The position numbers and the translations under genes were made by a program. Under the pieces are notes generated by a model, which searched no databases, was not told the DNA's origin, and was given only the letters and a program-made list of their open reading frames with translations. DNA of 64,000 bases. It comes from a virus (lineage: Duplodnaviria > Caudoviricetes). The stretch lies in the IMG/VR virus record IMGVR_UViG_3300021400_000128, positions 64,001 to 128,000 of that record; one strand, written 5' to 3'. Shown in pieces: positions 3,547-49,372 of this stretch (position 1 is its first letter; each line of letters opens with the position of its first letter).

Positions 3547-3606
3547 AAATAAAAAAAGGCACCTGTATGTACAAAGTGCCTTCTTAGGGTCTGTTTTTAT
3601 TATAAT
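3547..3606 (-). promoter_or_regulatory. CTAAGAA-box leader element 1 (terminator type)
   Basis: TATAAT, then CAGACCCTAAGAAGGCAC, loop, GTGCC and a T-tract. Confidence 0.8.
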
Positions 3607-3648
3607 TGATTTTGTTGTTATATGACTATTTATATTTACCGGAGCATT

Positions 3649-4320
3649 TTATGATTTTTTCGTCCATTGGCCGAGAATATATCGTTGATAGTCAGCTCCG
3701 ATATACATTGATTTGTATGATTCTTTTATGGTGTCTGGAATGTATTGATTGTCATCTATTGAAAAGTTGAGATATAGTGCATTCTTTTCAGAAGATTTTG
3801 TGATCCATTCTCTGAAAAACCAATTCGATTTATCAAGTGGGGTTGTGTTGAACCAGTATCGAGAATTCTTTATTGAGCTGCACCCAATAATATTTTCAAC
3901 AAATGATTTTGGTGTCAAGGGTGCTTGATCGAAAAAGGCCCCTGCAAAATTGAAATATTGTGCTTTTTTCACTGAATCATCATCGTGTGAATTGAACAGG
4001 TAGAATTGATTTGCAGTTTTATGTTTCTTGATTAGAACGTATCTCTGTTCTCTGTTGAAATCCATATTGTATTGAGTTTTTAATTCAGCATTCGATATGA
4101 TTTGTGACACAATATTTTTACTGCACGTTTGATAACTTAATCCACATAATGCAAAATCGTTATTATCAAAATTTTTCATTGCCCATTTGATAAATGTTTC
4201 GAGGATGATGGTGCTTTTTCCCGAATGAACCGCTCCGTCACATATCAGGGTTTTGAATTTTGTGTTCGGAAAATCAAGGATCTTTTTCTGTTTTTCACTT
4301 AGCTGCATTGTTTTCTCCAT
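3649..4320 (-). CDS. Stand-alone terminase large subunit ATPase-domain paralogue
   Basis: Colinear with the N-half of 6209-7489 (LSEKQ, ICDGAVHSGKS, YWFN, NALYL, YQRYILG.W). Walker B is FDQ instead of FDE, and there is no nuclease domain. Confidence 0.8.
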   Translation of the reverse strand: MEKTMQLSEKQKKILDFPNTKFKTLICDGAVHSGKSTIILETFIKWAMKNFDNNDFALCGLSYQTCSKNIVSQIISNAELKTQYNMDFNREQRYVLIKKHKTANQFYLFNSHDDDSVKKAQYFNFAGAFFDQAPLTPKSFVENIIGCSSIKNSRYWFNTTPLDKSNWFFREWITKSSEKNALYLNFSIDDNQYIPDTIKESYKSMYIGADYQRYILGQWTKKS

Positions 4321-4345
4321 TATTGTATTTCGCGCCAGGAGTGAA

Positions 4346-5584
4346 CTACTCGGCCATAAATGACCGAGCTTCTTGCTTCATCGCTGCGTCTTGCTGTTGA
4401 AAACGTATTTTCGAACAGTAGAGGGCGCGGGCTCCACAAGCGTTATTGGTTTGGCCAGTTCCTGACCTACCATTATTCAAAAGGAATTGTCTAATTCCTT
4501 CGTTTCTAATATTGACAGCAGCATTGATATCACGGTCATGATGTGTTCGGCAGTTATTACAAACCCATTGACGGATACGTAGATCTTTCACTTCTGGATG
4601 TAATGAGCCGCAAACTGAACAGGTTTGTGAGGATGGGTACCATTTATTGATCCGTATAAGGACTTTTCCCCTGTCTTGTAACTTATAATCTAAAAAGTTC
4701 AGAAACATTCCATAACCATTATCAAGTGTCACTTTTCCGTTACCAAAGCCTTTATTAGACATTGCTTTCATATTCAGATCTTCAACACAGACCATGTCAT
4801 ACTGATTGGCTATCTCAGCAGATTTCTTGTGAAGAAAATCGCTTCTTTGGTTTGCTATATGTCTATGTACTTTTGCAATTTTTAATTTTGTTTTTTTATA
4901 ATTATTGCTTCCTTTCGTTTTATGCCGTAATTTCCTTTGTGCGTGAGTTAGCCGCTTTTGCCCTTTTCGGAAGTATTTCGGTGATCCACAAGTATTTCCA
5001 TTGGAATCAGTATATAAACCATCCGATTTATAATCGAGACCAATTGCATTCAATTCTGGCTCGGTAACAGACCTTTTATCAGAATCATACTCAAACAAAA
5101 CTGAACAGAAATATTTTCCATCATTTGTCATAGAGACGGTTGCAGATTTTAGTTTCCATCCGTCATCAGGATATCTATGAAGAATAGCTTTTACCTTTCC
5201 GATTTTTGGTAATCGTATCTTTTTATTTTCAAAATCAAGGGATACTGTTCCATTTTGATTATTAGTTGTATATGAATCCCGAGATTTCTTTTTTGATTTG
5301 AATTTTGGGCGTCCGGTTCCTTTTGCAGTGAAAAATCGTTTGTACGCATCCTGTAAATTAAGCTGAACATTTGCCAATGCTAATGAATCCACTTCACGAA
5401 GATATGGGTATTCATCTTTATACATAGCAGGGGTTGGTTTTACAATGGATTTATCCTTTTTATAAGCATTTTCCCGTGTTGCAAGCATCAAATTCCAGAT
5501 TTTCCGACAACATCCAAAGGTCTTTGCAAATAAGACTTTCTGTTCATCGTTTGGATATATTTGATATTTGATAGCTCTGTTCAT
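4346..5584 (-). CDS. tnpB: TnpB RNA-guided endonuclease
   Basis: OrfB HTH, RuvC D (IGLDY), E (VEDL), D (DRDINAA) and CxxC..CxxC zinc finger. Confidence 0.95.
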   Translation of the reverse strand: MNRAIKYQIYPNDEQKVLFAKTFGCCRKIWNLMLATRENAYKKDKSIVKPTPAMYKDEYPYLREVDSLALANVQLNLQDAYKRFFTAKGTGRPKFKSKKKSRDSYTTNNQNGTVSLDFENKKIRLPKIGKVKAILHRYPDDGWKLKSATVSMTNDGKYFCSVLFEYDSDKRSVTEPELNAIGLDYKSDGLYTDSNGNTCGSPKYFRKGQKRLTHAQRKLRHKTKGSNNYKKTKLKIAKVHRHIANQRSDFLHKKSAEIANQYDMVCVEDLNMKAMSNKGFGNGKVTLDNGYGMFLNFLDYKLQDRGKVLIRINKWYPSSQTCSVCGSLHPEVKDLRIRQWVCNNCRTHHDRDINAAVNIRNEGIRQFLLNNGRSGTGQTNNACGARALYCSKIRFQQQDAAMKQEARSFMAE

Positions 5585-5994
5585 ATTTGTACGTTGTTCT
5601 GTCTTTCGATATATTTGAGTATATTTTCTTCACTGGTAGAGCCAATTGTCTCCACAAAATAGCTACCATTCCAAAGGTGTCCTTTCCAGAGTTTGTTCTT
5701 TATTTCGGGAAATTCAAGCAATAGATGACGACCAGATATCCCTTTTAACCATCGGACAATATCTGTCACGGATAATTTGGGAGGCGAAGATACAAAACAG
5801 TGGACATGATCCATCTCCCCAACTTTCGCTTCAATGACACTAAATCCTTTTTCGTTTCCTATTTCTGCAAGTAGATCATATAATCTTTCGGAAATATTTT
5901 CATTCAATACTTTTCGACGATATTTTGTACACCAAATAATATGATAGTTGATGTTATAAACACATGTTCGTCCGTGAGTGTATTTGTTTGACAT
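5581..5994 (-). CDS. tnpA: IS200-family Y1 (HUH) transposase
   Basis: YHIIWCTKYRR, DHVH, LKG.S, LW..SYF and YIE.Q motifs. Confidence 0.97.
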   Translation of the reverse strand: MSNKYTHGRTCVYNINYHIIWCTKYRRKVLNENISERLYDLLAEIGNEKGFSVIEAKVGEMDHVHCFVSSPPKLSVTDIVRWLKGISGRHLLLEFPEIKNKLWKGHLWNGSYFVETIGSTSEENILKYIERQNNVQI

Positions 5995-6164
5995 ACATAT
6001 AGTATATCATACTATATGAGATAATTCAAATATAAGCAGGCTCAAAAATAGACTACACATAGTCAACGCTTTCATCTCCCACATGAATGAGGGAGAATTC
6101 CCGCGTCACCCTCAATTAAAAATTTTAGACTTTTCTATATTAAGCGAACATCTTTACATCTTGT

Positions 6165-6198
6165 AAGAAAAAAGCCCTCAGTTTAACGCTGTGAGCTT
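6165..6198 (-). terminator. Intrinsic terminator after terL
   Basis: AAGCTCACAG-loop-CTGAGGGCTT plus T-tract; near-identical copy at 46317-46349. Confidence 0.7.
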
Positions 6199-6208
6199 AA
6201 TTTCGATA

Positions 6209-7489
6209 TCATGCCGTTCCTCTTACGCCCATATTGTCAATAAACTTTTCCCACGCGTATTCTTCTGCATCGGCAACATCATTGACCTTTGGTTCGTTAT
6301 CTAAACGAACATCTTTATTTGGCTTGCTTTCATCCCAAACCTGATTCTGCGTGGAGAATATCACCATCTCACACCATTTCATGACGTGCCATTTCCCCTG
6401 GTTCAGCATCCTTTGTTTAGCGTATATCCGTGTATTAATTGATTCTTTTCTTGCAATCGTTACACCAATCGGCACGCCTGCTCGTTTGATTGCTGCATAA
6501 ATCCCGTGTGTCAGTGTTTCAGGTTGATCTGTCCAACAATATGTAGGTTTTATTTCTCTGTCCTTATAAATCCATTGGTATTTCTTGATACACTTCTTTG
6601 CAAAGTCAACGAAATCGGTTTCAATTCCATCCGGAGCAACACCTGTGCTGTCTCGCATGAATTCTTCAAGAACAACCACGCCATTTCCTTTATCCATGAT
6701 CCCGCAGCAGATAAATACCGTATTAGAATGATTTACACCGAAATCAATACCAAAAGTCAGATATTTAATTCCTCTTGGGACTGCATCCAGTATCCAGTTT
6801 TTCGGATTGTTGGCAAACTGAGTAAAGATGACACCTTCAGCTCTCACCCACATTCCGAGAATGTACCGCTGATAGAAGACACCGCTGTACATAGACTTGT
6901 AACGTGCGATAATGTGTTCACTCAAACTTGGGTTATCTTCAAGAAGAAAGTGTAGGTATAAGGCGTTCTTTTCTTCTTTACCAAGTATCCATTCCTGATA
7001 AAACCAGTGATCAGGTTTGTCAGGGTTGCAGTTGAACCAATATTTAGAACCTTCCACGGAGCATCGAGCACAGCCTTGATCCACAAATGATTTTGGCATC
7101 AGGGCAACTTCATCAAACATGATCCCTGCCATCGTAATACCCTGGATCAACTGATAACTTGCTGCATCTCGTCCGCCGTACAAGTAGAAATTATTGACAA
7201 CATCACCTTTGCTGATCTGGAGAAGGTTTTCTGTCCGTCTGAAATGGATGTTGTATCGTTTCTGGGCATAGCGGAGATTAATATATGGCTGTACAATATT
7301 TCGGTTGCATGTAGAAAAGGTTTTCCCGCACAATCCGAAATTGCGTCCATTGAAATTTCGCATTGCCCAATCAACAAAAGCGACGGTCATGATACTTGTC
7401 TTTCCGGAGCGGATGGCTCCATCACAAATCAATGCATCGTAATTTGTGAATGGAAATGCCCGGATCATGTTTTGCTTTTCGCTTAACAA
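6209..7489 (-). CDS. terL: Terminase large subunit (PBSX-like)
   Basis: Walker A GAIRSGKT, Walker B IMFDE, CNP coupling motif, nuclease GIDFG and D..DA..Y. Start moved to a TTG after SD AAAGGAG because the upstream ORF extension overlaps element 2. Confidence 0.93.
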   Translation of the reverse strand: MLSEKQNMIRAFPFTNYDALICDGAIRSGKTSIMTVAFVDWAMRNFNGRNFGLCGKTFSTCNRNIVQPYINLRYAQKRYNIHFRRTENLLQISKGDVVNNFYLYGGRDAASYQLIQGITMAGIMFDEVALMPKSFVDQGCARCSVEGSKYWFNCNPDKPDHWFYQEWILGKEEKNALYLHFLLEDNPSLSEHIIARYKSMYSGVFYQRYILGMWVRAEGVIFTQFANNPKNWILDAVPRGIKYLTFGIDFGVNHSNTVFICCGIMDKGNGVVVLEEFMRDSTGVAPDGIETDFVDFAKKCIKKYQWIYKDREIKPTYCWTDQPETLTHGIYAAIKRAGVPIGVTIARKESINTRIYAKQRMLNQGKWHVMKWCEMVIFSTQNQVWDESKPNKDVRLDNEPKVNDVADAEEYAWEKFIDNMGVRGTA

Positions 7490-7510
7490 TATATACGCAA
7501 GCTCCTTTAA

Positions 7511-7567
7511 CAAAAAAAAAGAAGGCACACGATCAAATGTGCCTTCTTAGGGTCTGTTTTTATTATA
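7511..7567 (-). promoter_or_regulatory. CTAAGAA-box leader element 2 (terminator type), upstream of terL
   Basis: TATAAT..CAGACCCTAAGAAGGCACA-loop-TGTGCCTTC-T9. Confidence 0.85.
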
Positions 7568-7788: not shown

Positions 7789-8622
7789 CTATGCTTTTAT
7801 TCCATATTGGCTTTCTAAAGTTTCAAACATGGCTTCCACATAAGCCTTTGAGTTGTTACTTGCATTATCGCCATTTGAATATACATCCGCGAAAGCTTCC
7901 GCAAATCCTTCCATCACATTTGTTTTCGCATATCGGGATATTCCTGATAATAATGCGTCTTTTGATTTTACATGAGCTTTCTTCTTTGCAAGCTTCCAAA
8001 CATCATTCAGAAATTCGCCAGATAATCTTTTTTTATATAATTTACTTAATTCTAAAAAAGTCAAATTGCCTTCTTGCATCCAATTGAAATAATAATTATG
8101 TATAGCATGACCAAATTCATGAGCGATCGTTGCTTCAGGTGTTGAATTTGGTGTATTGTAAGACGATTCATACAAAACAGGATTATCCTTCATCTCCCAA
8201 AACACAGGATTCAATGTCAATTTTCCGCTTTGGCTCATAGCGGCAATTGCATCATTTCGGATATCAAATTCTTTAATAAATCCTTCCATAAAAGGATAAC
8301 GTGCTTCCAAGTCAGATATAACGCCCATAACACGCTTTGCCATTGACAATTCAGTTCTGTTTATAAAATCATCCGATACTGCTTTATTACCGTACCTTTC
8401 ACGCATGACAGAAGCAAATTCTTCTTTTGTCTGCGTGTCGTTTATCCTATCTTTGAAAGTTTTTTCTGTCGGCGGCTGCTTTGCGGCTAACCGTTTTTGC
8501 CGTTCCGCTTCTCTGGCTTCCTGTCGCCTCCGCTCAAGTTCATCGATCTCGCTCTGCGGAGCTCCGTCTTGTATTGCCCTTGCTATCTTTTTCGCTAATC
8601 TGTAACTTGCCGATCCGCCCAT
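7789..8622 (-). CDS. MGG-leader protein with zincin-like metallopeptidase domain
   Basis: MGGSASYRLAKKIA leader; HEFGH, S.YA and EGFAEAF motifs. Confidence 0.8.
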   Translation of the reverse strand: MGGSASYRLAKKIARAIQDGAPQSEIDELERRRQEAREAERQKRLAAKQPPTEKTFKDRINDTQTKEEFASVMRERYGNKAVSDDFINRTELSMAKRVMGVISDLEARYPFMEGFIKEFDIRNDAIAAMSQSGKLTLNPVFWEMKDNPVLYESSYNTPNSTPEATIAHEFGHAIHNYYFNWMQEGNLTFLELSKLYKKRLSGEFLNDVWKLAKKKAHVKSKDALLSGISRYAKTNVMEGFAEAFADVYSNGDNASNNSKAYVEAMFETLESQYGIKA

Positions 8623-8687
8623 AAGGGTATCCTCCTCTCTGATTTAGATACCCTTTCTTAGAGCGCATATCTTTTCTAATATTTTAA
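8623..8687 (-). promoter_or_regulatory. CTAAGAA-box leader element 3 (SD-sequestering type)
   Basis: CTCTAAGAAAGGGTATC...GAGGAGGATACCCTT-ATG; the stem closes at the start codon. Confidence 0.75.
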
Positions 8688-10929: not shown

Positions 10930-10986
10930 TAAAAAAAATAAGAAAGTGCAATGAATACACTTTCTTAGAGTCTTTTGTTATTATAC
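10930..10986 (-). promoter_or_regulatory. CTAAGAA-box leader element 4 (terminator type), upstream of terS
   Basis: TATAAT..GACTCTAAGAAAGTG-loop-CACTTTCTTA-T8. Confidence 0.85.
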
Positions 10987-11261: not shown

Positions 11262-12164
11262 TTATCCTCCATATCCTAATCTGTCAATTTCATCTAATAA
11301 TACCTTGACATATGCCTTTGAAACTTCACTGGCATTGTCTTTATTAGTATATATATCTGCAAATGCTTCCGCAAATGCTTCTTTTGTTGGGCTGCCGCCA
11401 TATGACTTCGCATCACTGGCATACCCCGAGATTTCATGTCGGAAAGATGGTAAGGCTTTTTTATATCCTATTGATTTTTTTGCTTCCTTTTCCAGACGTT
11501 GTAAAGTTTTACTTTTTCTGATATCATCCATCATATTATAAGTATCAAAAAAACCTTTTTTCTTTGCATCTTTCAACATTCTGCCTAATAAGTAATTATG
11601 TATCGCATGACCGAATTCATGTGCAACCACAGATTCAGGTGTCATATTTGGGATATCAAATCCTCTTTCAGCTCCTGAAAACAATTTTGGATCATCTACC
11701 TTTGAAAAATGTACGCCTAACCCAAAGGTTTGACGTGTTTCACCAGTAGCCCCACTGAATGTAGATTTAATTTCTGCGGCAGTTGTACCACCAGGATCAA
11801 CGATGTAATGGAATCCATTTATAGCCCCCTGCATAAAGGGATATCTTTCTTCAAGTTCAGAAATGGTATTCAACGCCCGTTTTATCATTTGTAAATCATG
11901 GTTCTCCGTAAAACCCTTTGCAACATTTGTTTCGCCATATTTTTCAATCAACACAGAACGCAGATCTTCTTTTGTCTGCGCATCATTTATTTTATCCCAA
12001 AAAGACTTTTCTTTTGGCTGCTTTGCGGTTAACCGTTTTTGCCGCTCCACTTCTTTCGCTGCCTGTCTCTGCTGTTCAAGTTCATCGATTTCACTTTGAG
12101 GAGCCCCGTTCTGCAATGCTCTTGCTATCTTTTTTGCTAACCTGTAGCTTGCTGATCCACCCAT
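11262..12164 (-). CDS. MGG-leader protein with zincin-like metallopeptidase domain
   Basis: MGGSASYRLAKKIARA leader; HEFGH and EAFAEAF; paralogue of 7789-8622. Confidence 0.8.
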   Translation of the reverse strand: MGGSASYRLAKKIARALQNGAPQSEIDELEQQRQAAKEVERQKRLTAKQPKEKSFWDKINDAQTKEDLRSVLIEKYGETNVAKGFTENHDLQMIKRALNTISELEERYPFMQGAINGFHYIVDPGGTTAAEIKSTFSGATGETRQTFGLGVHFSKVDDPKLFSGAERGFDIPNMTPESVVAHEFGHAIHNYLLGRMLKDAKKKGFFDTYNMMDDIRKSKTLQRLEKEAKKSIGYKKALPSFRHEISGYASDAKSYGGSPTKEAFAEAFADIYTNKDNASEVSKAYVKVLLDEIDRLGYGG

Positions 12165-12182
12165 GTCAACCATCCTTTAAAG

Positions 12183-12238
12183 CAAAAGAAGACTGAACAT
12201 TGATCGCTCAGTCTTCTTAGGAATCTCGCTGATTATAA
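12183..12238 (-). promoter_or_regulatory. CTAAGAA-box leader element 5 (terminator type)
   Basis: TATAAT..TTCCTAAGAAGACTGA-loop-TCAGTCTTCTTTT. Confidence 0.8.
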
Positions 12239-13295: not shown

Positions 13296-14195
13296 TTATT
13301 TTGAATTATCGTATGTTACTTTAAATCCCGCTGATTCGATTTGTTGAATTGTCGCCGCATGTGATGGATTATTTTTCCATGTCTTTGGTACAGAGAAATG
13401 ATCTATATCATTGAGTGTTACATCACCGTGGAATTGTAATTCAGCGTATTGGTATCCATAGCTGCCGGTGTCATATAATTGTTTTGCTTGTTCGTAAAAA
13501 TAACGAGCTTCACCTTCAGTAATTCTATCCGGTTCACCCCATTCTGCACTATATTTTGAAATGATACGGGGATTTGACACCCAACTCGGATATAAAACAT
13601 CATACAACGAATCTCCAAGGGTCATTGTTGTACGGCTCACCATTGTATCTTTTTTGAAGACAATATCCAAATTACCGTAAGATGCAGCAGAAACAGAATC
13701 AGGACTTCCAAGATAGCCGTATTTTTCATAATCAGCGGGAGCTAAGACACCATCATATTCAAATGCTGTTCGCGAAAAATAATCTCTTGCGTCGAGATCT
13801 TCTGCACCCATTGATGTACCCGTCTCGAACTGATTCATAATTCTTCCACTGGATAAAATCTTTGCAACTGTACTTTCTTTTATTCTTCGGCGAAATTCAA
13901 GTTTCTCAACTGCTTTGCGTAAATATTCTTCTCCACGATCGATTAGTTTCTGTGCGTCTACGGGCGAGTTATCCCGTAAGTTCTTTGACTTCTCAATATG
14001 CCCTGTGAAATTCTTTAATAATTTTGGTAATTCTGTATTTACAGGATTATTCTTTTCTCGTAAATATTGCTCATATGCTTCTTTTGCTTGCTGCCGTACA
14101 TAATCTTCATCGAATTCAAAAATTTCATTTTCGTATTCTTTTCTTTTCTTTTCGATAAATCTTTTAACAAATCTGAATTTTGCACTTCCACCCAT
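13296..14195 (-). CDS. MGG-leader protein, C-terminal DUF3626/ART-like domain
   Basis: MGGSAKFR leader; NQFETGTS.G, YGYL, YG, T.T.GDS and Y.E.Q.HG motifs. Confidence 0.6.
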   Translation of the reverse strand: MGGSAKFRFVKRFIEKKRKEYENEIFEFDEDYVRQQAKEAYEQYLREKNNPVNTELPKLLKNFTGHIEKSKNLRDNSPVDAQKLIDRGEEYLRKAVEKLEFRRRIKESTVAKILSSGRIMNQFETGTSMGAEDLDARDYFSRTAFEYDGVLAPADYEKYGYLGSPDSVSAASYGNLDIVFKKDTMVSRTTMTLGDSLYDVLYPSWVSNPRIISKYSAEWGEPDRITEGEARYFYEQAKQLYDTGSYGYQYAELQFHGDVTLNDIDHFSVPKTWKNNPSHAATIQQIESAGFKVTYDNSK

Positions 14196-14209: not shown

Positions 14210-14258
14210 AATAAAAAAAGAAGACTAAACTTTTTTAGCTTAGCCTTCTTAGGGTCCT
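14210..14258 (-). promoter_or_regulatory. CTAAGAA-box leader element 6 (terminator type)
   Basis: GGACCCTAAGAAGGCTAAGC-loop-GTTTAGTCTTC-T7; no clear -10 nearby. Confidence 0.8.
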
Positions 14259-14274
14259 GTAGCTGATGATTTAC

Positions 14275-16403: not shown

Positions 16404-19144
16404 AAGTTATCCCCACCAGTGACGATCTCTTTCATCAACTCGGCAATTTTCTCCAACTCACTTATTTGTTGCTGTTTCTTTTCGTACCGTGCGTACTTCT
16501 CAGGCTCAACAGCATCCCAATCAATCGCCTGACCGCATCGTGAACAGTAATTCGATTTCTGCTGATTGTGCCTTCGCGGTACGTACTGCTCTCCGACGAA
16601 CCATCCGCAAGTAGGGCAGCACCATTCAGCCCATTTGCTGATCCAGGTGTCTCCTGGTTTGTCAATATAATCAGTACCAATAAGTGATTCACCTGTCTTG
16701 AAAATAGGTTCTTTCGGTATCAATCTGTTATCATCTTGCAACACGTGATACTGATTATCTAATTTTGGCAAATCAACATAAATACAATCCATCTCATTGA
16801 CTTCAGGATATTTAATTGCTATTGCATTCGCGTCAATCAATCTGTAACTCATTACTTGTTTCCTTTTTTCTTACATAAAATAAAAATCCATTGCACTTGT
16901 CTTATTTTTCATTGTCAGCTCCGTTATAACTTCCGCAGTTCGGGCAGTACGAAAAATCTGTGAAGTAATACTGATACGGAGCGGTCATATACTTCCCACA
17001 CACAGAACATCTTGCTGACTGCCAGACTGGAATTTCATAATCCGCATTGTCAAAAGTTTCCTTTTCCATCCACTTTCCTTTCTTCCGCTCTGGCTCTACG
17101 GATGGCAATGTTTGCACCAGTTTTCTCACACCGCTGGCGGCACCCCCAAGGTCGCCATACAGGCCTCTTAATGTTTCTGCTCTCGAAGTCAATAAATTAA
17201 TTATCGTTTGCCTATCTATACAATCACTCATTCCAACTCCGATCTAACTTTGCACCGCAATGTGAACAATAAGAATCACAACTAAAAACTTTTTTCTTGC
17301 AATACTAAATTCTCTGGTATCTTCACTAATATATTCACCACACTCAAATAAATGTGTAAACATTATTTTTTTTTGCGCGTCTATTGCGTCCTGTCTGCCT
17401 ATAAGGTCACTCATAATTAGCTTTCTCTAAATCCATATATCCACATTTATCCATCATATCCGCTCCGCAGTGGTAACAATAGTAAAAATTGTGATTCCCG
17501 ATATCTGAGTTTTCTAAAACTGCATGACATTCAGAGCACTCCCAACAATCTTCATCTTTTCGGCGTTGCCACCTTCCCTTCTTTCGATCTGCGGAAGCTA
17601 AATTATTAATTGCTTTTATCGCATCGTCCAGCCCTTTGTTGTACTGTGTGAACGGATTACCTTCACTAACATAACCGTTACTATTTCCTTTGTAGGCAGT
17701 CATGTAAACCTTCTCAAATTCGATTGCTTCAACAGCATCATTTCTATCAATCAAATCACTCATCATTTACTTCTCCAAGGTTCTGGTAACGGCATCCATG
17801 CGAGTACATTCACATTATGTGCGTCACAGTCACCATCATGCGCACACCACCATGCACTCTGATTCCAACTAATATACCCGACAGAGATAAATGAATTCTG
17901 GTTATATTTTTTATCTAATCTACGGATTGTCAACAGTACAAACTCTCCATCTTTCGGCAATGCTTCAGTAACAGAAATCCACTTCCGCTCCGGCTCTGCG
18001 GATGGCAAGGCTTTCAATGCTTCTACTGCTGGTTTTGCATCAAAACCTTCCGGGATGGAACAGCCATATGTTTCAATGTCTTCCGTTTCCAACCGATACA
18101 TTGCATCTATCGCATCCTGTCTCCGAATCAAATCACCATTCATACTGCACATCCTCCTTGCAAATATCGTCTACTCTGACGATCCAGACAGGAAACCAAC
18201 CTTTACCATAATTCGGCTTTTCCTGACCGACTTCAGCCACATACCCTGAAGCTCTTTCGCCATCATACCACCCACAATAATATCGACACCAACCATCTTT
18301 GATTTCTGCTTTTGGATTTATGTCCACATTAGGTATATTATTCAGACAATCTTCGCCTACGATATAACCAATCACAGCTCTTTTTTCACGGCAAACATCT
18401 TTAGAAACGACGTAAATACTACCTTCATCAAAATCTACCAATACACCCCATGTGAATTTTCTGTTACTCATTACTCACTCCAATAAAACCAAAAATTTCA
18501 GCACAAATGCATTTCGATGATGGACAAATATATTGGTAATGATTTTCTAAATCACATGAACCTATATGAGTACCAATTTCACTTCTATCTATTGTGTTTT
18601 TCCCACTAAAATATGGACAATTACAAATATATTCATCAATTTTTTTGTTATCCATACAGTCTTCCATCTCAGCATTCCTCAACCAGCGTCTTCATCGTCA
18701 CTCCAATCCAGTTTTACTCCGCACACCGGGCAAAAATTGACTTGAGCACCATCATAAAATCGTCTGAGATAAAATCCGCATTCGCATTTATACACTTGAA
18801 ATCCAAGATAATTCGCTTTCACTGTTCGCTTTTCAGGGTCTATGGTAGGCGCGTTTTCAATCTCTCGCCATACGTCCTTATTAGAAAAATCTTGGTCATC
18901 GTGAACATTCCACAGTTCTTCCAATTCCTCTTTCAATGCGTCAGCGTCAATTAACCTCATCTGACAGCTCCTTACTCTCTATTATTTCTTCTGGATCAGG
19001 ATCCATAAGAGCGCCACAATTAGGACAATACAGTGACTTTTCTTCTGGCGTGTCGTACTCAAATCCGCATTCCGAGCAACGGTTGTAACCGTAATCGTCT
19101 TCTATCCATTCGCCAAATTGAATATCCATCTCAGCACTCCTCAA
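16400..19144 (-). other. Cluster of about 9 small related ORFs (LID/LISRQDAI start, zinc ribbon or DUF551-like ends)
   Basis: 16400-16852, 16902-17231, 17407-17766, 17763-18152, 18133-18471, 18464-18682, 18679-18960 and 18947-19144, with overlapping stop/start codons. Confidence 0.7.
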
Positions 19145-25952: not shown

Positions 25953-26006
25953 AAATAAAAAGTAGACACTTGTATGTACAAAGTGCCTTCTTAGGGTCTG
26001 ATTATA
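25953..26006 (-). promoter_or_regulatory. CTAAGAA-box leader element 7 (terminator type)
   Basis: CAGACCCTAAGAAGGCACTTTGTACATACAAGTGTCT..T-tract; nearly identical to element 1. Confidence 0.85.
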
Positions 26007-27464: not shown

Positions 27465-27480
27465 ATTACTCCTAATGTGT

Positions 27481-27535
27481 AAATAAGAAGGCACCTGTTA
27501 ATTAAGGTGCCTTCTTAGGGTCTGTGTTTATTATA
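27481..27535 (-). promoter_or_regulatory. CTAAGAA-box leader element 8 (terminator type)
   Basis: TATAAT..CAGACCCTAAGAAGGCACCT-loop-AGGTGCCTTCTTATTT. Confidence 0.85.
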
Positions 27536-30544: not shown

Positions 30545-30609
30545 CAAAAATAAAAGAAAGCACAATTCAATTACGAAATGTGCCTTCTTAGGGTCTGAGG
30601 TAATTATAA
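30545..30609 (-). promoter_or_regulatory. CTAAGAA-box leader element 9 (terminator type), upstream of nrdG
   Basis: TATAAT..CAGACCCTAAGAAGGCACA-loop-TGTGCTTTCTTTTATTTTT. Confidence 0.85.
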
Positions 30610-30715
30610 CTGATTTTCTTTATGTGTTTTTTTTATTTTAATTGGCGATATCCTTGATGGAATATACTTATCATCTGTTTACTGAATTATCGCCGGATAT
30701 ATGAGCTTCGACATA

Positions 30716-31051: not shown

Positions 31052-31948
31052 TTAAATTTTACTCCAATCAATTTCAGGGCGTTCAATAGTTTTTGCATCT
31101 TGTCCAACTATAGTAAACACGACTTGTGGAGTTCCATATCTACCACCAGTTCTGTTGATCGCAATCGGTTTCAGTTTATAACCTCTCTGTAAGATGATTT
31201 CAAATTCAGTTCCATAATCAGATTGTTTTGAAACACCATCCCATCCTAAACCGCTTCCCATCCCATGAATACTAAAAGGTTCTGCGTAAATACCTTTTGA
31301 TCCTTTCGGTACAAAAATCTTCATTTCCACGCCACTAAATCCACTTTCAGAAGTCGCACCTGTTGACATAAAGTTATTAACATCTATGATTTTACCTTGA
31401 TCGATGGCTTCCTGAACACCATCCAACATTGCTGGTATAGGCTGAGCAAGCATTAAACCAAACATTCTGTTCATATGTCGTGTTGATACTCCGCGCCGCA
31501 CCCAGATATCTTCTGGAATCTCGGTTTTATCCAAAGCAGCTGTCAGCTGATTCACACGTTCCATTGTTCCATCGTAAAGGTATTCTGTAGGATCCAGTCT
31601 TCCACCTAATAATTTATTCATTGAATCATAAGCACCACCGGTAAATTCATAAGCAGCATCTCTTTCATCATCTGTAAAGCTATTCCATGCTTTACCGGAG
31701 CTTTCCCGGAATTTATCATCAACTTCTTGTTTGTCTTTAGTCCATATCGCATTATCTAATCGTTTTTGATCGTATGATTCACGGTATGGGCTTTGATTTT
31801 CTGAATTCTGCTGTCTTCTTTTTTCTCGTTCCGCTTCTTTTGCTGCTTGTCTCTTGCGTTCAAGATCATCAATTTCAGTCTGCGGAGCTCCATTCAGCCT
31901 TGCATTGGCTATTTTCTTTGCTAATCGATAACTTGCTGATCCACCCAT
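31052..31948 (-). CDS. MGG-leader protein with VIP2/C3-like ADP-ribosyltransferase domain
   Basis: Y..MN..L, VRRG, FMST and E.EIIL.RG motifs. Confidence 0.85.
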   Translation of the reverse strand: MGGSASYRLAKKIANARLNGAPQTEIDDLERKRQAAKEAEREKRRQQNSENQSPYRESYDQKRLDNAIWTKDKQEVDDKFRESSGKAWNSFTDDERDAAYEFTGGAYDSMNKLLGGRLDPTEYLYDGTMERVNQLTAALDKTEIPEDIWVRRGVSTRHMNRMFGLMLAQPIPAMLDGVQEAIDQGKIIDVNNFMSTGATSESGFSGVEMKIFVPKGSKGIYAEPFSIHGMGSGLGWDGVSKQSDYGTEFEIILQRGYKLKPIAINRTGGRYGTPQVVFTIVGQDAKTIERPEIDWSKI

Positions 31949-31994
31949 AGAAAAGACACCTCCTAATCAAGATGCCCTTTCTTAGAGCGCACAT
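31949..31994 (-). promoter_or_regulatory. CTAAGAA-box leader element 10 (SD-sequestering type)
   Basis: CTCTAAGAAAGGGCATCT pairs with AGGTGTCTTTTCT-ATG, covering part of SD GGAGGT. Confidence 0.8.
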
Positions 31995-32033
31995 CTTTTT
32001 ATTTGTTTACTATTATTTTAACTCCGTACAATT

Positions 32034-32472: not shown

Positions 32473-33231
32473 TTATCCTCTCTGTTCATCTGTAGCACTG
32501 TTTCTCATCGGTGCTGTCCTGTGGAGACCGACTAAAACAGCATATGGCTTTCCATCGTTACTATGAAAAGGGTGCACTTTCACATAAGTCCTGATACTTT
32601 CACCGCTGTTATTTGTAACGAACGTCTCAAACTCCCATAAATAATCATTTTCTGGTATTCCATCTATTATAGGTGTCTGTCTTGCATCTAACACTCTCCT
32701 TAAATTTTCTGGAGTGAGTTGTGGCATTACCTGTTCTAATATTGCTTTATAATCTGGCATATCATTGTATTGTAAATAATTACGATTTTTTACTTTACCA
32801 TCAAAAAACAAGAATCCACCCTTTTCTGTTTCTATGTCTCCTGTAATTAGTCTGTTAACCGCATTGGTTTCAGGTGAGCCATTTCTATCTTCTGGAGACA
32901 CTTTATCGTCATCATTTAAATTATCAATTGCTAACATTCTTTGTAAGAATCCGACGACTTCCCTTCCGGTCTGTGGCAATGGAGTCATCGCTGCCCTGCC
33001 TGTAGCCGTCGGATTCTCGAATTTGTCTAATACACGGTTTTCCAGTGTCCGTAATATGTTTGTTCGCTGTTCTGCTATCGGCTCTGCCATATTTGCAAGA
33101 GCCATATGATCTTCAATCGTTATATTGATATTATGAAAGCGATGATTGACAGGCTTCCCGTCTTTTCTGAAATAAATTCCGTTTCTTCTGTAATATCGTA
33201 CCGCACCTGAATTGTCTCTGCCACCGCCCAT
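32473..33231 (-). CDS. MGG-leader protein, C-terminal possible MqsR/RelE-fold RNase
   Basis: MGGGRDNSG leader; LWEF...TYVKV...LVGLH ending; followed by an MqsA-like gene. Confidence 0.55.
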   Translation of the reverse strand: MGGGRDNSGAVRYYRRNGIYFRKDGKPVNHRFHNINITIEDHMALANMAEPIAEQRTNILRTLENRVLDKFENPTATGRAAMTPLPQTGREVVGFLQRMLAIDNLNDDDKVSPEDRNGSPETNAVNRLITGDIETEKGGFLFFDGKVKNRNYLQYNDMPDYKAILEQVMPQLTPENLRRVLDARQTPIIDGIPENDYLWEFETFVTNNSGESIRTYVKVHPFHSNDGKPYAVLVGLHRTAPMRNSATDEQRG

Positions 33232-33298
33232 AGGGATGCCCTCCTTTTTCGATTAGGACACCCCTTCTTAGGGCGCATGTCACTCGATTTAATTATAC
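33232..33298 (-). promoter_or_regulatory. CTAAGAA-box leader element 11 (SD-sequestering type)
   Basis: TATAAT..GCCCTAAGAAGGGGTGTCCT pairs with AGGGCATCCCT-ATG. Confidence 0.8.
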
Positions 33299-35264: not shown

Positions 35265-36053
35265 TTAACTGCCCTGGTACTTTGTTTCAAATCTCTTCAC
35301 AATATCTAATAGACGACTGTCAAGATATTTCTCGGCAAGTTCTCTTATTTCGTCAGGTACACCGTAATACGCCTCCGCCATGCCACCTGCCATACAGGCA
35401 ATCGTGTCACTGTCTCCGCCGATGGATATTGCTGTCCGGATCGTGTCTTCAAATGAAATGGATTCAAGAAATGCTTCTATTGCCTGAGGTACGCTGTCCA
35501 TACACGTTTCCACATGTTTATACGTCGGACGGATTTCATCACAGGTGAAATTCAGCTTGTAGTATTTCCGGTTCACCATTTCCCGTATATCTGCCAGCGG
35601 AGCTTTTTCTTTTGCCATCATCATGACCTCAGTGACGGCCAACGCACCTTTAATCCCTTCAGGGTGATTGTGCGATACCTCTGTCACTGCTTTAGCTGTC
35701 TCCAGTGCTTCTGTAAGGTCATTACAGGCAAAAGCAACAGGGCTAATCCGCATCCCTGCACCATTACCCAGGCTGTTATAAGGTTCTGTCAGTCCATTCA
35801 TGATCCAGGTATAGAAGAATCTGCCATATCCACAGTTTGGGTAATGTTTCCCGATTTCGTGCATGGTTCGTATCGCTGCCTGCTGCATGGTCTCATTTTC
35901 GCCTTTTGTCAGCAGTGCTTCCGCAATAGCACAAGTCATCACAGTATCATCTGTAAAGGTACATTCCGGAGCAATTAGCATAAATTTCTTTGATTTATGG
36001 TTGTGAAACTCGAATCTGCTCCCGGCAATATCTCCAACAATAGCTCCAATCAT
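35265..36053 (-). CDS. ADP-ribosylglycohydrolase (DraG/ARH family)
   Basis: GAIVGDI.GS, TDDT, S.GNG..MR, H.HPE and GGDSDT motifs. Confidence 0.92.
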   Translation of the reverse strand: MIGAIVGDIAGSRFEFHNHKSKKFMLIAPECTFTDDTVMTCAIAEALLTKGENETMQQAAIRTMHEIGKHYPNCGYGRFFYTWIMNGLTEPYNSLGNGAGMRISPVAFACNDLTEALETAKAVTEVSHNHPEGIKGALAVTEVMMMAKEKAPLADIREMVNRKYYKLNFTCDEIRPTYKHVETCMDSVPQAIEAFLESISFEDTIRTAISIGGDSDTIACMAGGMAEAYYGVPDEIRELAEKYLDSRLLDIVKRFETKYQGS

Positions 36054-36068
36054 TTTTTTATTCCTTGC

Positions 36069-36587
36069 TTAGTTTTTGGTTACACTGTAACTTATGATTT
36101 CATTTAGATATTCATTCTTTGCTTGCCATTCAGCACTGTCTTCATCAAGATCGATCATTTCATTCATCATGGCGATTCCTGCTTCTGTCTCATAGCGGTA
36201 AATGGGTTTTAGCGTATATTCTGCATCGCCATCGAGCATTTTTGTTTTTGTCAGGCATTCCCAGCAATGGCCATAGCTTTCACCATTCCATCCATTTAGA
36301 ACATAATACTTTTTACCGAGCTGAATGATTTCGTGTGCACCGTCATTCATCCAATAGCCCCGGTGATGATACTCAGGAAATTCACATTCACCACGAAGTT
36401 CATAAGCGTTCATTTCATTGTCTGCTAATGGTTCTGCATATTCTATCTCACCCCATGCCCAGAGCTTGCGACCGTCCGCAGTGGAGATCTGCTTTTTTCC
36501 TTCGGGATAATTCTCGATCCTTGTAGGCTTCCCCGGATATGTGCCGATACCAACCGGGCGCATTATTGAATAATATCTGTACGTCAT
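36069..36587 (-). CDS. Protein with polyvalent-protein (DarA_C-like) N-terminal domain
   Basis: YRYYS..RP...GTYP...WG.IEY..PL.....YEL. Confidence 0.5.
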   Translation of the reverse strand: MTYRYYSIMRPVGIGTYPGKPTRIENYPEGKKQISTADGRKLWAWGEIEYAEPLADNEMNAYELRGECEFPEYHHRGYWMNDGAHEIIQLGKKYYVLNGWNGESYGHCWECLTKTKMLDGDAEYTLKPIYRYETEAGIAMMNEMIDLDEDSAEWQAKNEYLNEIISYSVTKN

Positions 36588-37525: not shown

Positions 37526-38782
37526 TTAGCTTCGTGGGAGGAACGCCGAATTTCTTTTTTCAACAATGTAACTATTATTAGGTTGTATCAGTTTTAATTT
37601 CTTGTAACTGACTGAACCATTATTTACCTTTGTTCCGTCCAAAGAACGGATGTCAAAATATCCACTATCTCGACGTCCAAATACAATATATGGCTTATCT
37701 TGATACACAACCATATCGAACAACCGAAATCCCCTTACTTCGTGTGGAGCTTGATTTCTCTTTTTTGCCCCACCTTTCAAAAAATTACATTTGTGTATCT
37801 GCCTGTTGTGACAGCGAACTTTTCTGTAGAAAAAGACTTCACCGTTACTCTTCGCTGTAGGATTCCCGCTGATACACCGTGCATCGATGTAATGATCCTT
37901 TGGTAACCCATTCTCAATACGAGTATGTTTTGTGATATACCCATAAGTAAGATTCACGTTAAGATATGTCTGCTTCAGTTTTCCGTAAAATGCCCATCGC
38001 ATGATTCCCATAAAAGCAGCATCTTTGAAACTCATACCGCGTTTAATTCTTTTCGGGAGATCAACTGTTCCGTTATGATATCCTTTATGACAGGTCTCAC
38101 ACAGCGTAATAAGATTGTTCGGAGCATCTCCACCGGTTTTCCTTGATTCAATATGATGCACATTCAGAATCTTATCTTTTGACTTTCCTTTACAGCATTG
38201 ACACTTATGACCATCCCTGTATAAAACATATTCACGCACATTCCAAAATCCTAACTGTTCACCCTGCTGATACTCTGCACCACTGATTTCAGGATTCTTG
38301 ATTTTCTGAATATCAAATGAAGCAACCTCCACCATTATTTTTGAAACGGGTAGTATATTATGGATTCTCCGAATAAATGAAAGATGCGTGTCAACCTTCT
38401 GCTGTACTGAAGGTGCTAACCAGCCGTCTTTCCGCTTGCGGTTATCAAATCTTGCTTTGCGATAACGTAGTTTACGGTTCCGGCGAGAGCTTCTTTGTTC
38501 TCTCCGGGATGAAAGCAATTTCACGATATCGTTTCTTACTTCAACATTTGCTTCAAATAAGACTTTTTCTTTTGTTGTAGTAGAGATACCAATCACCTTT
38601 GATCCGGCATCGACGCCTAAAGTAACCTCCTGCGTATAATTTGTTGTTTCATACGCTAACTGTATTGTGAACGGACATTTCTTGATTACCTTTGCCTTAT
38701 GCGACTTTAGGAGAATACGCACTTTTGCATGGTTCTCTGTGGGCATTAAGGGCTGTCCGTTTGCGCTTATAACATAAACCAT
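37526..38782 (-). CDS. iscB: IscB RNA-guided endonuclease
   Basis: PLMP, RuvC-I LGVDAG, RRxRR bridge helix, RuvC-II VE...FD, HNH (VHHI..NLITLC..CH) and RuvC-III H..DA. Confidence 0.97.
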   Translation of the reverse strand: MVYVISANGQPLMPTENHAKVRILLKSHKAKVIKKCPFTIQLAYETTNYTQEVTLGVDAGSKVIGISTTTKEKVLFEANVEVRNDIVKLLSSRREQRSSRRNRKLRYRKARFDNRKRKDGWLAPSVQQKVDTHLSFIRRIHNILPVSKIMVEVASFDIQKIKNPEISGAEYQQGEQLGFWNVREYVLYRDGHKCQCCKGKSKDKILNVHHIESRKTGGDAPNNLITLCETCHKGYHNGTVDLPKRIKRGMSFKDAAFMGIMRWAFYGKLKQTYLNVNLTYGYITKHTRIENGLPKDHYIDARCISGNPTAKSNGEVFFYRKVRCHNRQIHKCNFLKGGAKKRNQAPHEVRGFRLFDMVVYQDKPYIVFGRRDSGYFDIRSLDGTKVNNGSVSYKKLKLIQPNNSYIVEKRNSAFLPRS

Positions 38783-38799
38783 ATTATCGTTTTCTCCTT

Positions 38800-39074
38800 T
38801 CCTAACTCTTTTCGAGTTAATAACTCACTCCGAAGAGCGGTAAGCATACCTTCGCCAATGTTATCCCAAGGTTTTGTATGTCTGCATCACTGTTCCTTCC
38901 TCACAGAACTGTTTAAACACAGACCGTAGTGTTCGGAATTAGGTATTACGTCCCGAAGTACCTATATATTCTCAGGTAACGTAGTGCTCATGGCACTTAG
39001 GCTATTCAATGTGAATTGCTTTTCGGTTTTTGCCATCAGCAATCCCCGAAGCTTTAGCTTCGTGGGTCATTGAA
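38800..39074 (-). ncRNA. IscB omegaRNA (HEARO-like) scaffold
   Basis: TCAAT..ATTGA.TAGCCTAAG..CTACGTT..ATAGGTAC..AACATTGGCGAAG hallmark blocks upstream of iscB. Confidence 0.85.
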
Positions 39075-46349: not shown

Positions 46350-46369
46350 AATTTTGATATTCTCGTGAA

Positions 46370-47623: not shown

Positions 47624-47684
47624 TAATAATAATTAAAAAAGCCCGGTAAAAAAGTCGGGCTTTTCACGTAAGGAGACTGATCTA

Positions 47685-48440
47685 TCAATCTGTTATTTTT
47701 CTGAGAATTTCTGTACCAAAGCTGTCATATTCGGCAATGAGCAGATAATCGTCAGCAAATTTATGGTAAGGTAATCCGTTATATCGCACGATATCAGCGG
47801 ATACAACGATCTTAGCTCCATAACTTAGCTGTCCGCAAATTCGCATTGTGTCCGCATCTCGGATGTTCGCCGCATCACAGACAACCATACACACTCCACC
47901 ATCAATTTTCTGTTCGTAAGATACCGGATTTGTATAGATTTGTTGAGATGGCACAAACACCGGGTTCATGGGCGGCTGCTGCATCACTGGCATTTGCTGA
48001 GTGTCAGGTATGTAGTCGATCACGGATTGCATGACGGTTTTCGGATCAAAGACCGTGCTGATTTTTCCTGCGTCCCGTCTTGCTTCAAAATGCAGATGTG
48101 GGCCGCTCGAGTTTCCTGTGCTTCCGGAATATGCAATCAAGTCACCTTTTTTAACTGGTTGTCCTTTGATACAATTGACCTTGCTTAAATGAGCATACAC
48201 CGTACCAGAGCCGTCTCCGTGCAGCAGGACAACGTAATTACCATATCCGCCGGGTTCATATCCAACAGTTTGCACCCAACCATCCGCAGCCGCAAGAATG
48301 GACGTTTCCATCGGGCATCCGTAATCAATTCCTTTGTGAGGATTGGATTTTGTGTAATACGGTTCCCAAATTGCGCCATAATCTAACGTAATGGGATATT
48401 CACCGCTGAAAGGCTGTCTCAGTTGAATCATATGCGCCAC
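47685..48440 (-). CDS. M23 peptidase endolysin
   Basis: HKGID, YAHL, STG.SSGPHLHFE; follows the holin. Confidence 0.88.
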   Translation of the reverse strand: MAHMIQLRQPFSGEYPITLDYGAIWEPYYTKSNPHKGIDYGCPMETSILAAADGWVQTVGYEPGGYGNYVVLLHGDGSGTVYAHLSKVNCIKGQPVKKGDLIAYSGSTGNSSGPHLHFEARRDAGKISTVFDPKTVMQSVIDYIPDTQQMPVMQQPPMNPVFVPSQQIYTNPVSYEQKIDGGVCMVVCDAANIRDADTMRICGQLSYGAKIVVSADIVRYNGLPYHKFADDYLLIAEYDSFGTEILRKITD

Positions 48441-48442
48441 CT

Positions 48443-48823
48443 TTAACTATCGATCTTTAAATTCCACTTACTGGCTTTGTTCAAAAGGTTTTCATTTGAC
48501 AGTTTTCGGAATTCATCCAGGTTCTTATTTGCAGTTTCAAGACCGCCGTTATGAGTGCCATTCATCACGCAATACACAAGTTCATGATCCAGTTCTGACA
48601 TAACCTGCATACCCCGAAGGAGGATGTAGTTATCGTATTCCCGTTCCTTCCGACCTTCTAAATTCTCTCTCCGGATTTCTTCCTGTTGAATTCTGAAAGC
48701 CTGTTTCATTTGGTCATTAACGTTATTTGAAAACATTTTGAAAAGCCAGATAACCACAACGATCGCTATCGCACCAATAGCGACCAAAACAGATGCGGGT
48801 ACGACCTCAATGATCTTGTTCAT
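48443..48823 (-). CDS. Membrane protein of the lysis module
   Basis: One N-terminal TM helix; lies between holin and lysin. Confidence 0.65.
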   Translation of the reverse strand: MNKIIEVVPASVLVAIGAIAIVVVIWLFKMFSNNVNDQMKQAFRIQQEEIRRENLEGRKEREYDNYILLRGMQVMSELDHELVYCVMNGTHNGGLETANKNLDEFRKLSNENLLNKASKWNLKIDS

Positions 48824-49299
48824 GATTTTGCTTTTCCTTTTACTGCTTTTTTCACAGGCTCCTGGATAACAATTGGCTCCTCGATAACCGGAACTTCTTC
48901 CGTTTTATCATCATCGCCATTATCATTATTGAGCATTTCGATCTGATATTCATACGGATTTCCGTAATCGTTCATATCCTTTACAGCAGCTTCGATGTAA
49001 GCAACAATGATTTCGATATCGAGCTTAATTCCCTTGGCTGCAAGATACTTTTCCACGACATTGATAGCGTAATTGAGTTTTTCGTGTCCGTGTTCGCCTC
49101 CGTACACCTGTTCAGCAGCAGTTACTGCTTCGCGACAGACAACCTTCAGGATTTCATACAGCTCCGGATTCTTATCCTTGAGCTTTTTGAAGATCTCAAT
49201 TGCTTTACCGATTGCCCAGCTTGCCAGTGCAGCAGCAAGAATAGGAAGAGCCGCTTCTAATACCGCTTGTAAAACTTTACTTAAGAGTTCCATATTCAC
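48820..49299 (-). CDS. LL-H-like holin
   Basis: TM segment, AV.AAEQ, G.EKL..A, IEAAV. Confidence 0.8.
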   Translation of the reverse strand: MNMELLSKVLQAVLEAALPILAAALASWAIGKAIEIFKKLKDKNPELYEILKVVCREAVTAAEQVYGGEHGHEKLNYAINVVEKYLAAKGIKLDIEIIVAYIEAAVKDMNDYGNPYEYQIEMLNNDNGDDDKTEEVPVIEEPIVIQEPVKKAVKGKAKS

Positions 49300-49307
49300 C
49301 TCCGCTT

Positions 49308-49372
49308 AAAATAAAAAAGCGCATCTTTTGTAGACACGCTTTCTTAGAGACTTTATCTAATTTTTATTATAA
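49308..49372 (-). promoter_or_regulatory. CTAAGAA-box leader element 12 (terminator type), upstream of the holin
   Basis: TATAAT..GTCTCTAAGAAAGCGTGTCT-loop-AGATGCGCTTTTTT. Confidence 0.8.

Follow-up and report, generated by a model that had tools for sequence, protein, structure and literature searches.

Box-hairpin leaders ahead of late genes in an uncultured gut phage: a candidate family of default-off gates opened by a box-binding factor

How large phages of Gram-positive-type hosts activate their late genes is mostly unknown; phage K, whose late promoters consist of a -10 element only and have no known activator, is an example (PMC11598898). The question is raised again by a stretch of 64,000 nucleotides, bases 64001-128000 of the IMG/VR record IMGVR_UViG_3300021400_000128 (hereafter the window), in which a short minus-strand sequence, CTAAGAA, recurs between genes, each time fused to the base of a hairpin. 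The record is a complete virus genome of 136,915 bp with direct terminal repeats, a GC content of 40% and nearly all of its genes on the minus strand; positions below refer either to the window or to this genome. The initial annotation of the window described twelve such sites as a riboregulator that switches late genes on through two outputs, relief of termination or exposure of the Shine-Dalgarno sequence (SD). Here we ask what the repeated unit consists of, whether it belongs to the promoter or to the transcript, and whether a switch is the best explanation for it.

All twelve minus-strand sites proposed for the window are present and intergenic, and their division into nine copies heading terminators (terminator-type) and three facing an SD (SD-type) was correct. 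CTAAGAA itself matches the window 18 times (minus strand 16, plus strand 2), against an expectation of 8.4 ± 3.3, and just one of 100 shuffles reaches 18; the six matches that do not belong to the unit lie inside coding sequence, lack the flanks and were rejected as chance occurrences (Table 1). The core therefore stands as first described, but the conserved unit is longer than was claimed, (A)GACC-CTAAGAA-GGC, and is fused to the 5' arm of the hairpin. In the nine terminator-type copies of the window this unit is followed by a variable stem and loop, GCCTTCTTTT..TTTAA, an SD and ATG, and the three SD-type copies read RTGCGCY-CTAAGAA-RGGG, place the 3' arm of the hairpin over the SD and have no T-tract. 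A scan of the rest of the genome, which the initial annotation had proposed, added five full copies, bringing the phage total to 17 (14 terminator-type and three SD-type).

Pattern scans for the box-hairpin unit were run over public sequence collections, and the unit was also present in three IMG/VR fragments, a dozen metagenome contigs, a Bacillota fragment from a metagenome-assembled genome (MAG) and a 148-kb contig of a goat-jejunum MAG binned as Flexilinea, which we call the sister phage. An alignment of 47 distinct terminator-type copies (A1) was used to build a covariance model (R1). Applied to the whole genome, R1 recovered 14 minus-strand copies at 25-62 bits and nothing of intermediate score, the remaining matches being reverse-strand echoes or bare hairpins without the box; in the goat-jejunum MAG it found 17 matches, all on one strand and all on the sister-phage contig. 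Unpaired AGA at positions -5 to -3, which lies upstream of the selection pattern and was not used in selecting copies, is 87-96% conserved. Megablast of the phage against phage records gave no match, and phages with a portal protein 33-64% identical have no R1 match and no shared alternative box, but ordinary terminators only. An Rfam search, also suggested at the outset, found no family matching the leaders, since the gathering-threshold scan of the window returned only HEARO, elsewhere than the leaders, and a permissive scan of six copies gave a single chance match. Our literature search found no paper describing this box-hairpin element.

The copies each fold as a hairpin of -12 to -27 kcal/mol, in which a lower stem of eight nearly fixed pairs, AAGAAGGC/GCCUUCUU, is topped by four upper pairs that covary freely; upper stem and loop sequences are distinct in 47 of 47 copies. 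The earlier observation that stems differ while pairing is kept holds in A1, where 95.7% of cells are standard-paired, against 42-64% with slid partners, and double-sided changes number 85, against 28.5 ± 4.4 in shuffles. G.U and U.G pairs (41) greatly outnumber A.C and C.A pairs (6), and the helix is therefore selected on the sense strand, that is, in RNA. Lower-stem wobbles arise almost only from C-to-U changes in the 3' arm (GU 8, 2 and 9) while the 5' arm remains fixed, apart from six cases that are all fully compensated; because the wobbles come from the 3' side, the box, to judge from this pattern, is read as a sequence and not merely as a pairing partner. In one pair of otherwise identical gates, at genome 60377 and on a related contig (L119:847), the hairpin loop is exactly inverted (AGAGAAT vs ATTCTCT), which suggests that the stem has been a site of recombination and demonstrates that the sequence of the loop does not matter.

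The sister phage (GC 45%) offers a comparison at useful distance, with approximately 31 kb alignable at 64-82% identity and homologues of 113 of the 251 open reading frames (ORFs). Across eight orthologous leader pairs the 15-nt box is 88% identical, with CTAAGAA itself identical in seven of the eight, whereas identity falls to 60% in the spacer upstream, 61% in the upper stem with its loop and 65% in the neighbouring coding sequence. By this measure the box is the most conserved part of the unit, above coding sequence.

A perfect TATAAT occurs within 50 nt upstream of the box in 39 of 50 copies and an extended TG in 25, but only four have a -35 match of 4/6 or better. The variable distance of TATAAT reported in the initial annotation is real, the gap to CTAAGAA being 11-33 nt, although it has a sharp mode and minimum at 11 nt. 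Measured from the -10 to the A of AGACC, the gap is 6 nt in 16 copies, again both mode and minimum, and extends to 28 nt, so that in the commonest class the first letter of the box falls at about +1, and the start site never splits it. The distance from box to stem, by contrast, is always 0. Since the stem distance is fixed and the -10 gap is not, the box is registered to the RNA hairpin and not to the promoter, in agreement with its original placement in the transcript. The hairpin always lies at least 13 nt downstream of the -10, and two copies, at window 14246 and at its sister-phage counterpart, have no credible -10 at all. Other interpretations of the layout were discarded: a leader peptide (an ATG/GTG/TTG-AGA-CCC-TAA frame is seen by eye in a few long-spacer copies) is impossible in the modal class, whose box begins at about +1; a promoter of the PeSL sort, with its -35 and -10 on either side of the hairpin, would require a spacing of 28-43 bp and a variable one; and IS200/IS605 end hairpins are ruled out by stems that differ between copies.

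The terminators themselves fall into distinct populations. A terminator scan identified 14 terminators with a box and, between genes on the minus strand, about 21 ordinary ones without it, the latter typically 11-28 nt past a stop codon and a median of 327 nt short of the next start. The T-tract of a box terminator begins a median of 25 nt ahead of the next start codon (range 22-57, and 22-39 nt in 13 of the 14), and because only some 20 nt, holding the SD, separate the T-tract from the ATG, the downstream gene can be transcribed only through the hairpin and U-tract. Two places, genome 60512/60351 and 55269/55170, have an ordinary terminator at the end of the upstream unit and then an entire cassette; as the upstream unit has already been ended, the box terminator there serves its own promoter. 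The lysis unit, opened by the gate at window 49341, is closed by an ordinary terminator at genome 111639, which argues for local and not processive action. Neither the promoter nor termination needs the box, since the -10 lies upstream of it at variable distance and ordinary terminators exist without it.

The three SD-type leaders carry the same box into a different setting. Their predicted folds have z-scores of -2.8 to -4.4, with an inner helix over GGAGG and an outer helix, GCGCY/GGGYG, covering AUG and codons 2-3, and in two of the three CUAAGA is unpaired in an internal loop. The proposal of one box with two kinds of hairpin is upheld by a single gene family that uses either: the MGGSASY gene has an SD-type leader here (8604..8672) and its homologue in the sister phage has a terminator-type leader, so that the outputs are interchangeable within the family.

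Gated functions comprise lysis, terS, terL, portal, capsid, tail, MGG effectors (proteins beginning with MGG, described below), nrdG/D, ParB and DUF5662 (Table 1). MGG proteins follow the gates at window 33265, 31979, 14246, 12214, 8655 and 3581 and at genome 62139. The R1 scan of the whole genome found no copy in the early block, which encodes a Cro-like protein, ERF, SSB, methylases, a replisome organiser, dCTP deaminase, an antirepressor, RNA ligases and many small ORFans. The claim that the element governs the whole late regulon is thus sound in that gated genes mostly have late functions, but it was slightly too strong, for nrdG/D, ParB and DUF5662 are gated as well and long late operons are gated at their heads only.

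We suggest that the leaders form a family of gates, off by default, each of which a box-binding factor opens locally, and we would give this reading an even chance of being right. In outline, 5'-leader RNA gates acting in cis would set 17 late transcription units to off by default. A host-type, -10-only promoter (TGnTATAAT, no -35) would start the RNA, and the box, (A)GACC-CUAAGAA-GG(C), would follow after the first 0-22 nt, its 3' half forming the 5' strand of the lower 8 bp of the hairpin. In 14 copies UUCUUUU after the hairpin would complete an intrinsic terminator 22-57 nt before the start codon, and in three the 3' strand of the hairpin would cover the SD and an outer helix the AUG. A sequence-specific factor, most likely an RNA-binding protein made earlier in infection and less likely a host factor, would bind the box while it is still single-stranded and keep the lower stem open, thereby abolishing termination in terminator-type copies and freeing the ribosome-binding site in SD-type copies. 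Its action would probably be local, unit by unit, and not a processive modification of RNA polymerase. We infer the termination, its relief, the timing of that relief and the existence and nature of the factor from the arrangement of the unit: a box that neither promoter nor termination needs, yet is the most conserved part, is kept as sequence on one arm only and has an unpaired 5' flank, fits a site for a trans-acting reader that competes with the lower stem. We advance more tentatively the idea that one small RNA-binding factor reads a single-stranded box of 10-15 nt and melts the helix, relieving termination at 14 units and sequestration at three, which would represent a new class of late-gene master switch.

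Several observations count against such gates. Approximately 95 proteins were scanned with Pfam or PHROGs and no regulator of this kind appeared, so that no trans factor can be named; six-frame searches of the genome were negative for NusG (NGN domain, PF02357), sigma-70 r2/r4, CAT_RBD (PF03123), ANTAR (PF03861), two Q families (PF06530 and PF03589, no match at E <= 1) and Com (Zn_ribbon_Com, PF10122, no match at E <= 10). A CxxC scan of small ORFs gave no convincing conserved Com-like candidate, and the sole zinc-ribbon ORF conserved in both phages looks Lar-like. A 117-aa protein in the position of a Q gene (window 49399-49752, just upstream of the first gate) was dropped as a candidate, having no Pfam or PHROG match and a weak HicB/RHH (ribbon-helix-helix) likeness; nor is it syntenic, for no homologue lies beside the holin gate of the sister phage. 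Of the gated genes, nrdG/D, ParB and DUF5662 are not classical late genes. SD-type copies are confined to this genome, where they precede three paralogous genes, and may descend from a single event. Finally, leaky terminators behind strong promoters could provide adequate constitutive expression without any factor. An antisense RNA, which the initial annotation had allowed as an alternative to a protein, is disfavoured: sense-strand matches to the anti-box outside the cassettes number 0 at up to three mismatches (0.6 expected), and the box has no complement other than the opposite strands of the cassettes themselves, which makes such an RNA unlikely. Candidates for the factor remain among small ORFans that are conserved and either basic or rich in Cys, such as those at genome 13636-13908, 48944-49246 and 135050-135325 and at window 30679-31029, and it may be a host factor.

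If there is no switch, the units could be constitutive attenuators or insulators in mobile, PeSL-like cassettes, with the box kept as an RNase processing or 5'-stabiliser site, or as homology for recombination that shuffles modules. Variable MGG effector genes do have cassettes at their sides, the two phages differ in the order of modules where cassettes border them (DUF5662 lies next to DUF4417 here but some 5 kb away from it in the sister phage, where a cassette lies directly before DUF4417), the inverted loop of L119 is a sign of recombination within the stem, and no factor was found. Recombination, however, would homogenise upper stems and loops too, and these are distinct in every copy of A1 while the box is fixed; the box is also kept between phages whose coding sequence is only about 65% identical. 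The stem-loop of a PeSL lies within or upstream of the promoter and outside its own transcript (PMC2839356), whereas here it is always transcribed, and cleavage within the box would leave the SD covered in SD-type leaders. We consider this account unlikely, though it should be kept in view. Processive antitermination on the model of lambda N/nut, put, LoaP or Q, in which the box, as RNA or non-template DNA, would load a factor onto RNA polymerase so that this and later terminators are ignored, strikes us as improbable. Promoter, conserved leader element and terminator form its classical layout, the box, like nut, ops and LoaP leader elements, follows the promoter at a distance that varies, and long late operons, those of the tape measure and tail genes for instance, stand behind a single gate. 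Against this, gated units end at ordinary terminators, and a fresh promoter and gate come directly after them (111639; 55269/55170; 60512/60351); a polymerase resistant to termination would have no use for such an arrangement. Moreover, the phage encodes no NusG/NGN domain, Q family or sigma factor, there is no terminator to be bypassed in the three SD-type copies, and a DNA site of the Q type, which has a fixed place in the promoter, is excluded by the variable distance from -10 to box.

It is very improbable that the terminated leaders are themselves the product, a family of small RNAs of 45-70 nt with a common single-stranded 5' seed (AGACCCUAAG), a hairpin, a U-tail and a host target. Their anatomy is typical of trans-acting RNAs, with a conserved seed and variable terminator hairpin behind 14 promoters, but the tight placement before start codons and the existence of terminator-less SD-type copies point to control in cis; the phage contains no complement of the seed, and no target is known. 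That the box serves as an operator in DNA, whether for a repressor, a roadblock or a late activator, is scarcely credible. The fixed 15-bp sequence does lie near promoters, and genes for a repressor, a Cro-like protein and RHH-like proteins are present in the phage; yet the box is no palindrome, it keeps an exact register with the RNA hairpin but stands at distances from the -10 that differ by 22 bp, the helix is under RNA-type G.U selection, and two copies have no promoter at all.

Among known systems, the lambdoid PR'-tR' (6S RNA)/Q arrangement resembles the present one in having a constitutive host-type promoter followed at once by a terminator, before lysis, packaging, head and tail genes. 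A predicted promoter-proximal intrinsic terminator ahead of late genes is likewise present here, and the first copy precedes the holin, as in lambda. The differences are that 17 gates are dispersed here in place of one, that the element is registered to a hairpin where the DNA site of lambda is fixed in the promoter, that no Q family is encoded, that ordinary terminators still end units and that some copies gate translation. In passive antitermination of the RAT or HutP type a protein bound at a leader RNA site prevents the terminator from forming; the likeness to BglG/SacY/LicT-RAT and HutP lies in a putative RNA site overlapping the 5' arm of the leader terminator and in local action. Here, however, the site is a linear box of 15 nt with no alternative RAT hairpin (ahead of the box come only 0-22 nt, which vary and are unconserved), the phage encodes neither a CAT_RBD nor an ANTAR protein, and the setting is a multi-copy phage late regulon and not a sugar or amino-acid operon. 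In Mu Com/mom, binding at a site just 5' of a hairpin that sequesters SD and start codon opens the hairpin and activates translation, and the three SD-type leaders match this plan, with a hairpin over SD and start codon and a candidate site just 5'; they differ in that no Zn_ribbon_Com match occurs here, the box mostly heads terminators and there are 17 copies. By analogy, RAT-type antitermination and Mu Com/mom would be the closest mechanistic counterparts of the two outputs, although the proteins that define them are absent here.

The short conserved elements of lambda N/nut, LoaP and RfaH/ops share with the box a variable distance downstream of promoters and a place before terminators, but no NusG paralogue is encoded here, the loops are unconserved, unlike boxB, and terminators at the ends of units oppose processivity. 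Late activators of the RinA/ArpU type act on DNA. In large Firmicute phages, as phage K shows, late promoters that have a bare -10 and no known activator are common. PeSL cassettes of T4-type phages occur in many intergenic copies, each with a host-type promoter and a terminator stem-loop, near variable accessory genes; their stem-loops lie inside or upstream of the promoter, terminate upstream transcription only and mark early genes (PMC2839356, PMC4122927). The present units are likewise multiple conserved promoter-terminator cassettes around variable genes; PeSLs, however, have no invariant extra box, and the hairpin here lies downstream of the -10, in its own transcript.

Table 1. Leaders, chance CTAAGAA matches and MGG genes; the box position is given where the text refers to a leader by it, and the five other boxes of the window lie, in row order, at 30585, 27512, 25988, 10962 and 7544.
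Feature	Coordinates	Box	Strand	Downstream genes	Details
Terminator-type leader, AGTCT-CTAAGAA-AGC	window 49307..49355	49341	-	holin, 126-aa gene, M23 peptidase	R1 42.4 bits
SD-type leader, GCGCC-CTAAGAA-GGGG	window 33213..33282	33265	-	252-aa MGG protein	minimum free energy (MFE) -29.2 kcal/mol, z -3.6; inner helix over GGAGG, outer helix over AUG and codons 2-3
SD-type leader	window 31930..31996	31979	-	298-aa MGG ADP-ribosyltransferase-domain protein	MFE -25.6 kcal/mol, z -4.4
Terminator-type leader	window 30548..30599		-	nrdG-like radical-SAM activase (Radical_SAM, Fer4_12)	R1 50.8 bits
Terminator-type leader	window 27479..27526		-	DUF5662 and DUF4417 genes (Pfam)	R1 52.9 bits
Terminator-type leader	window 25954..26002		-	ParB_N protein	R1 53.0 bits; lower stem partly degraded
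Terminator-type leader	window 14212..14260	14246	-	299-aa MGG protein	R1 51.2 bits
Terminator-type leader, relaxed 5' flank, GATTC-CTAAGAA-GAC	window 12180..12221	12214	-	300-aa MGG protein, weak ATLF-like match	R1 25.4 bits; hairpin -16.8 kcal/mol
Terminator-type leader, AGACT-CTAAGAA-AGT	window 10934..10976		-	140-aa putative terS	R1 43.1 bits
SD-type leader	window 8604..8672	8655	-	277-aa MGG protein, weak ATLF-like match	MFE -21.2 kcal/mol, z -2.8
Terminator-type leader	window 7513..7558		-	terL (426 aa, Terminase_6N)	R1 62.3 bits, best match
Terminator-type leader	window 3547..3595	3581	-	MGG-158, 241-aa gene, portal operon	R1 58.4 bits
Full copy outside window		genome 62139	-	MGG-leader effector-like protein	
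Full copy outside window		genome 60377	-	operon containing major head protein	
Full copies outside window		genome 56171, 55194	-	two tail-region genes	
Full copy outside window		genome 46569	-	2711-aa tape measure protein	
Chance CTAAGAA matches	window 42258, 46455, 58143, 63871		-		coding, flanks absent
Chance CTAAGAA matches	window 29621, 60819		+		coding, flanks absent
MGG family	window 3057-3533, 7789-8622, 11262-12164, 13296-14195, 31052-31948, 32473-33231; genome 61241-62092, 63515-64612				

Individual leaders bear out the general pattern (Table 1). The holin leader is the first copy in transcription order, has TGTTATAAT 18 nt upstream of its CTAAGAA, and is matched in the sister phage by an orthologous copy with compensatory stem changes. 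In the terS leader the lower stem is compensated, with A-U and U-A in pairs 16/43 and 18/41. For the leader at 14212..14260 the best -10 is GAGAAT, 32 nt away, and because no good -10 lies upstream it is probably fed by read-through. The portal gene, the last of its operon, matches phrog_533 at 2.5e-71, and the 764-aa protein after the nrdG-like activase is a putative NrdD, by reading alone. A second conserved block, CGGGTA.A.GCCGACGGGC....ACGGGAGA, was seen in the capsid-operon leader, L141:3270-3350 (-), corresponding to genome ~60270-60350, where it lies between the T-tract of the gate and the start codon; it is kept in five related contigs, and its predicted structure is weak.

The MGG family consists of at least eight proteins that begin MGG(S/G) and have N-terminal regions in common and different C-termini, among which are an ADP-ribosyltransferase domain (ADPrib_exo_Tox, 1.6e-21, in the 298-aa protein), weak ATLF-like matches and a head-morphogenesis-like PHROG. 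Most members are preceded by a gate and thus look like polymorphic effectors delivered by the virion. Elsewhere in the window (35265-36587, -) an ADP-ribosylglycohydrolase (1.2e-34) adjoins a DarA_C-domain protein, in a phage that also has an ADP-ribosyltransferase effector.

Other features of the genome were observed in passing. Window 3649-7489 (-) holds a putative IS200/IS605-type tnpA/tnpB pair (137 and 412 aa, 4346-5994, recognised by eye) between terL (6209-7489) and a 219-aa ORF (3649-4308) that is 44% identical to the terL ATPase domain and so represents an additional copy of terL-N, cut short; in the sister phage the insertion is absent and the full terL is matched at 94%. The HEARO (IscB omega) RNA match (38840-39074, -, 130.7 bits) lies directly upstream of a 418-aa ORF (37526-38782), and window 37526-39074 is apparently an intact IscB-type element. 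A 679-aa protein (window 53367-55406, -) fuses a kinase (AAA_33) to a T4-type RNA ligase domain, and a second RNA ligase, with an OB-fold, is found at L138:3673-4737 (-). Both ligases are kept in the sister phage, which suggests an RNA-repair counter-defence, perhaps against anticodon nucleases. Small-protein paralogues starting M(S)DLI(D/S)RQDAI(D/E)A occur at window 16902-18143 and 49803-50030 and at L142:3680-4069, one of them with DUF551. At genome 20458-22652 a lysogeny module comprises a Cro-like helix-turn-helix protein (-), a 219-aa repressor-like protein (+) and a 317-aa integrase-like protein (+), with box-less bidirectional terminators at ~20170-20200 and 22660-22800. The module is kept in the sister phage, and the phage is therefore probably temperate.

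The element is a clear cis signal, repeated many times and under strong constraint, by which the late regulon of an uncultured clade of phages is defined, and its box provides a direct handle for finding the regulator. If one box does feed two outputs, it would constitute a compact, portable switch for both termination and translation, and the gates together would be a distributed alternative to the single PR'-tR' gate of lambda.

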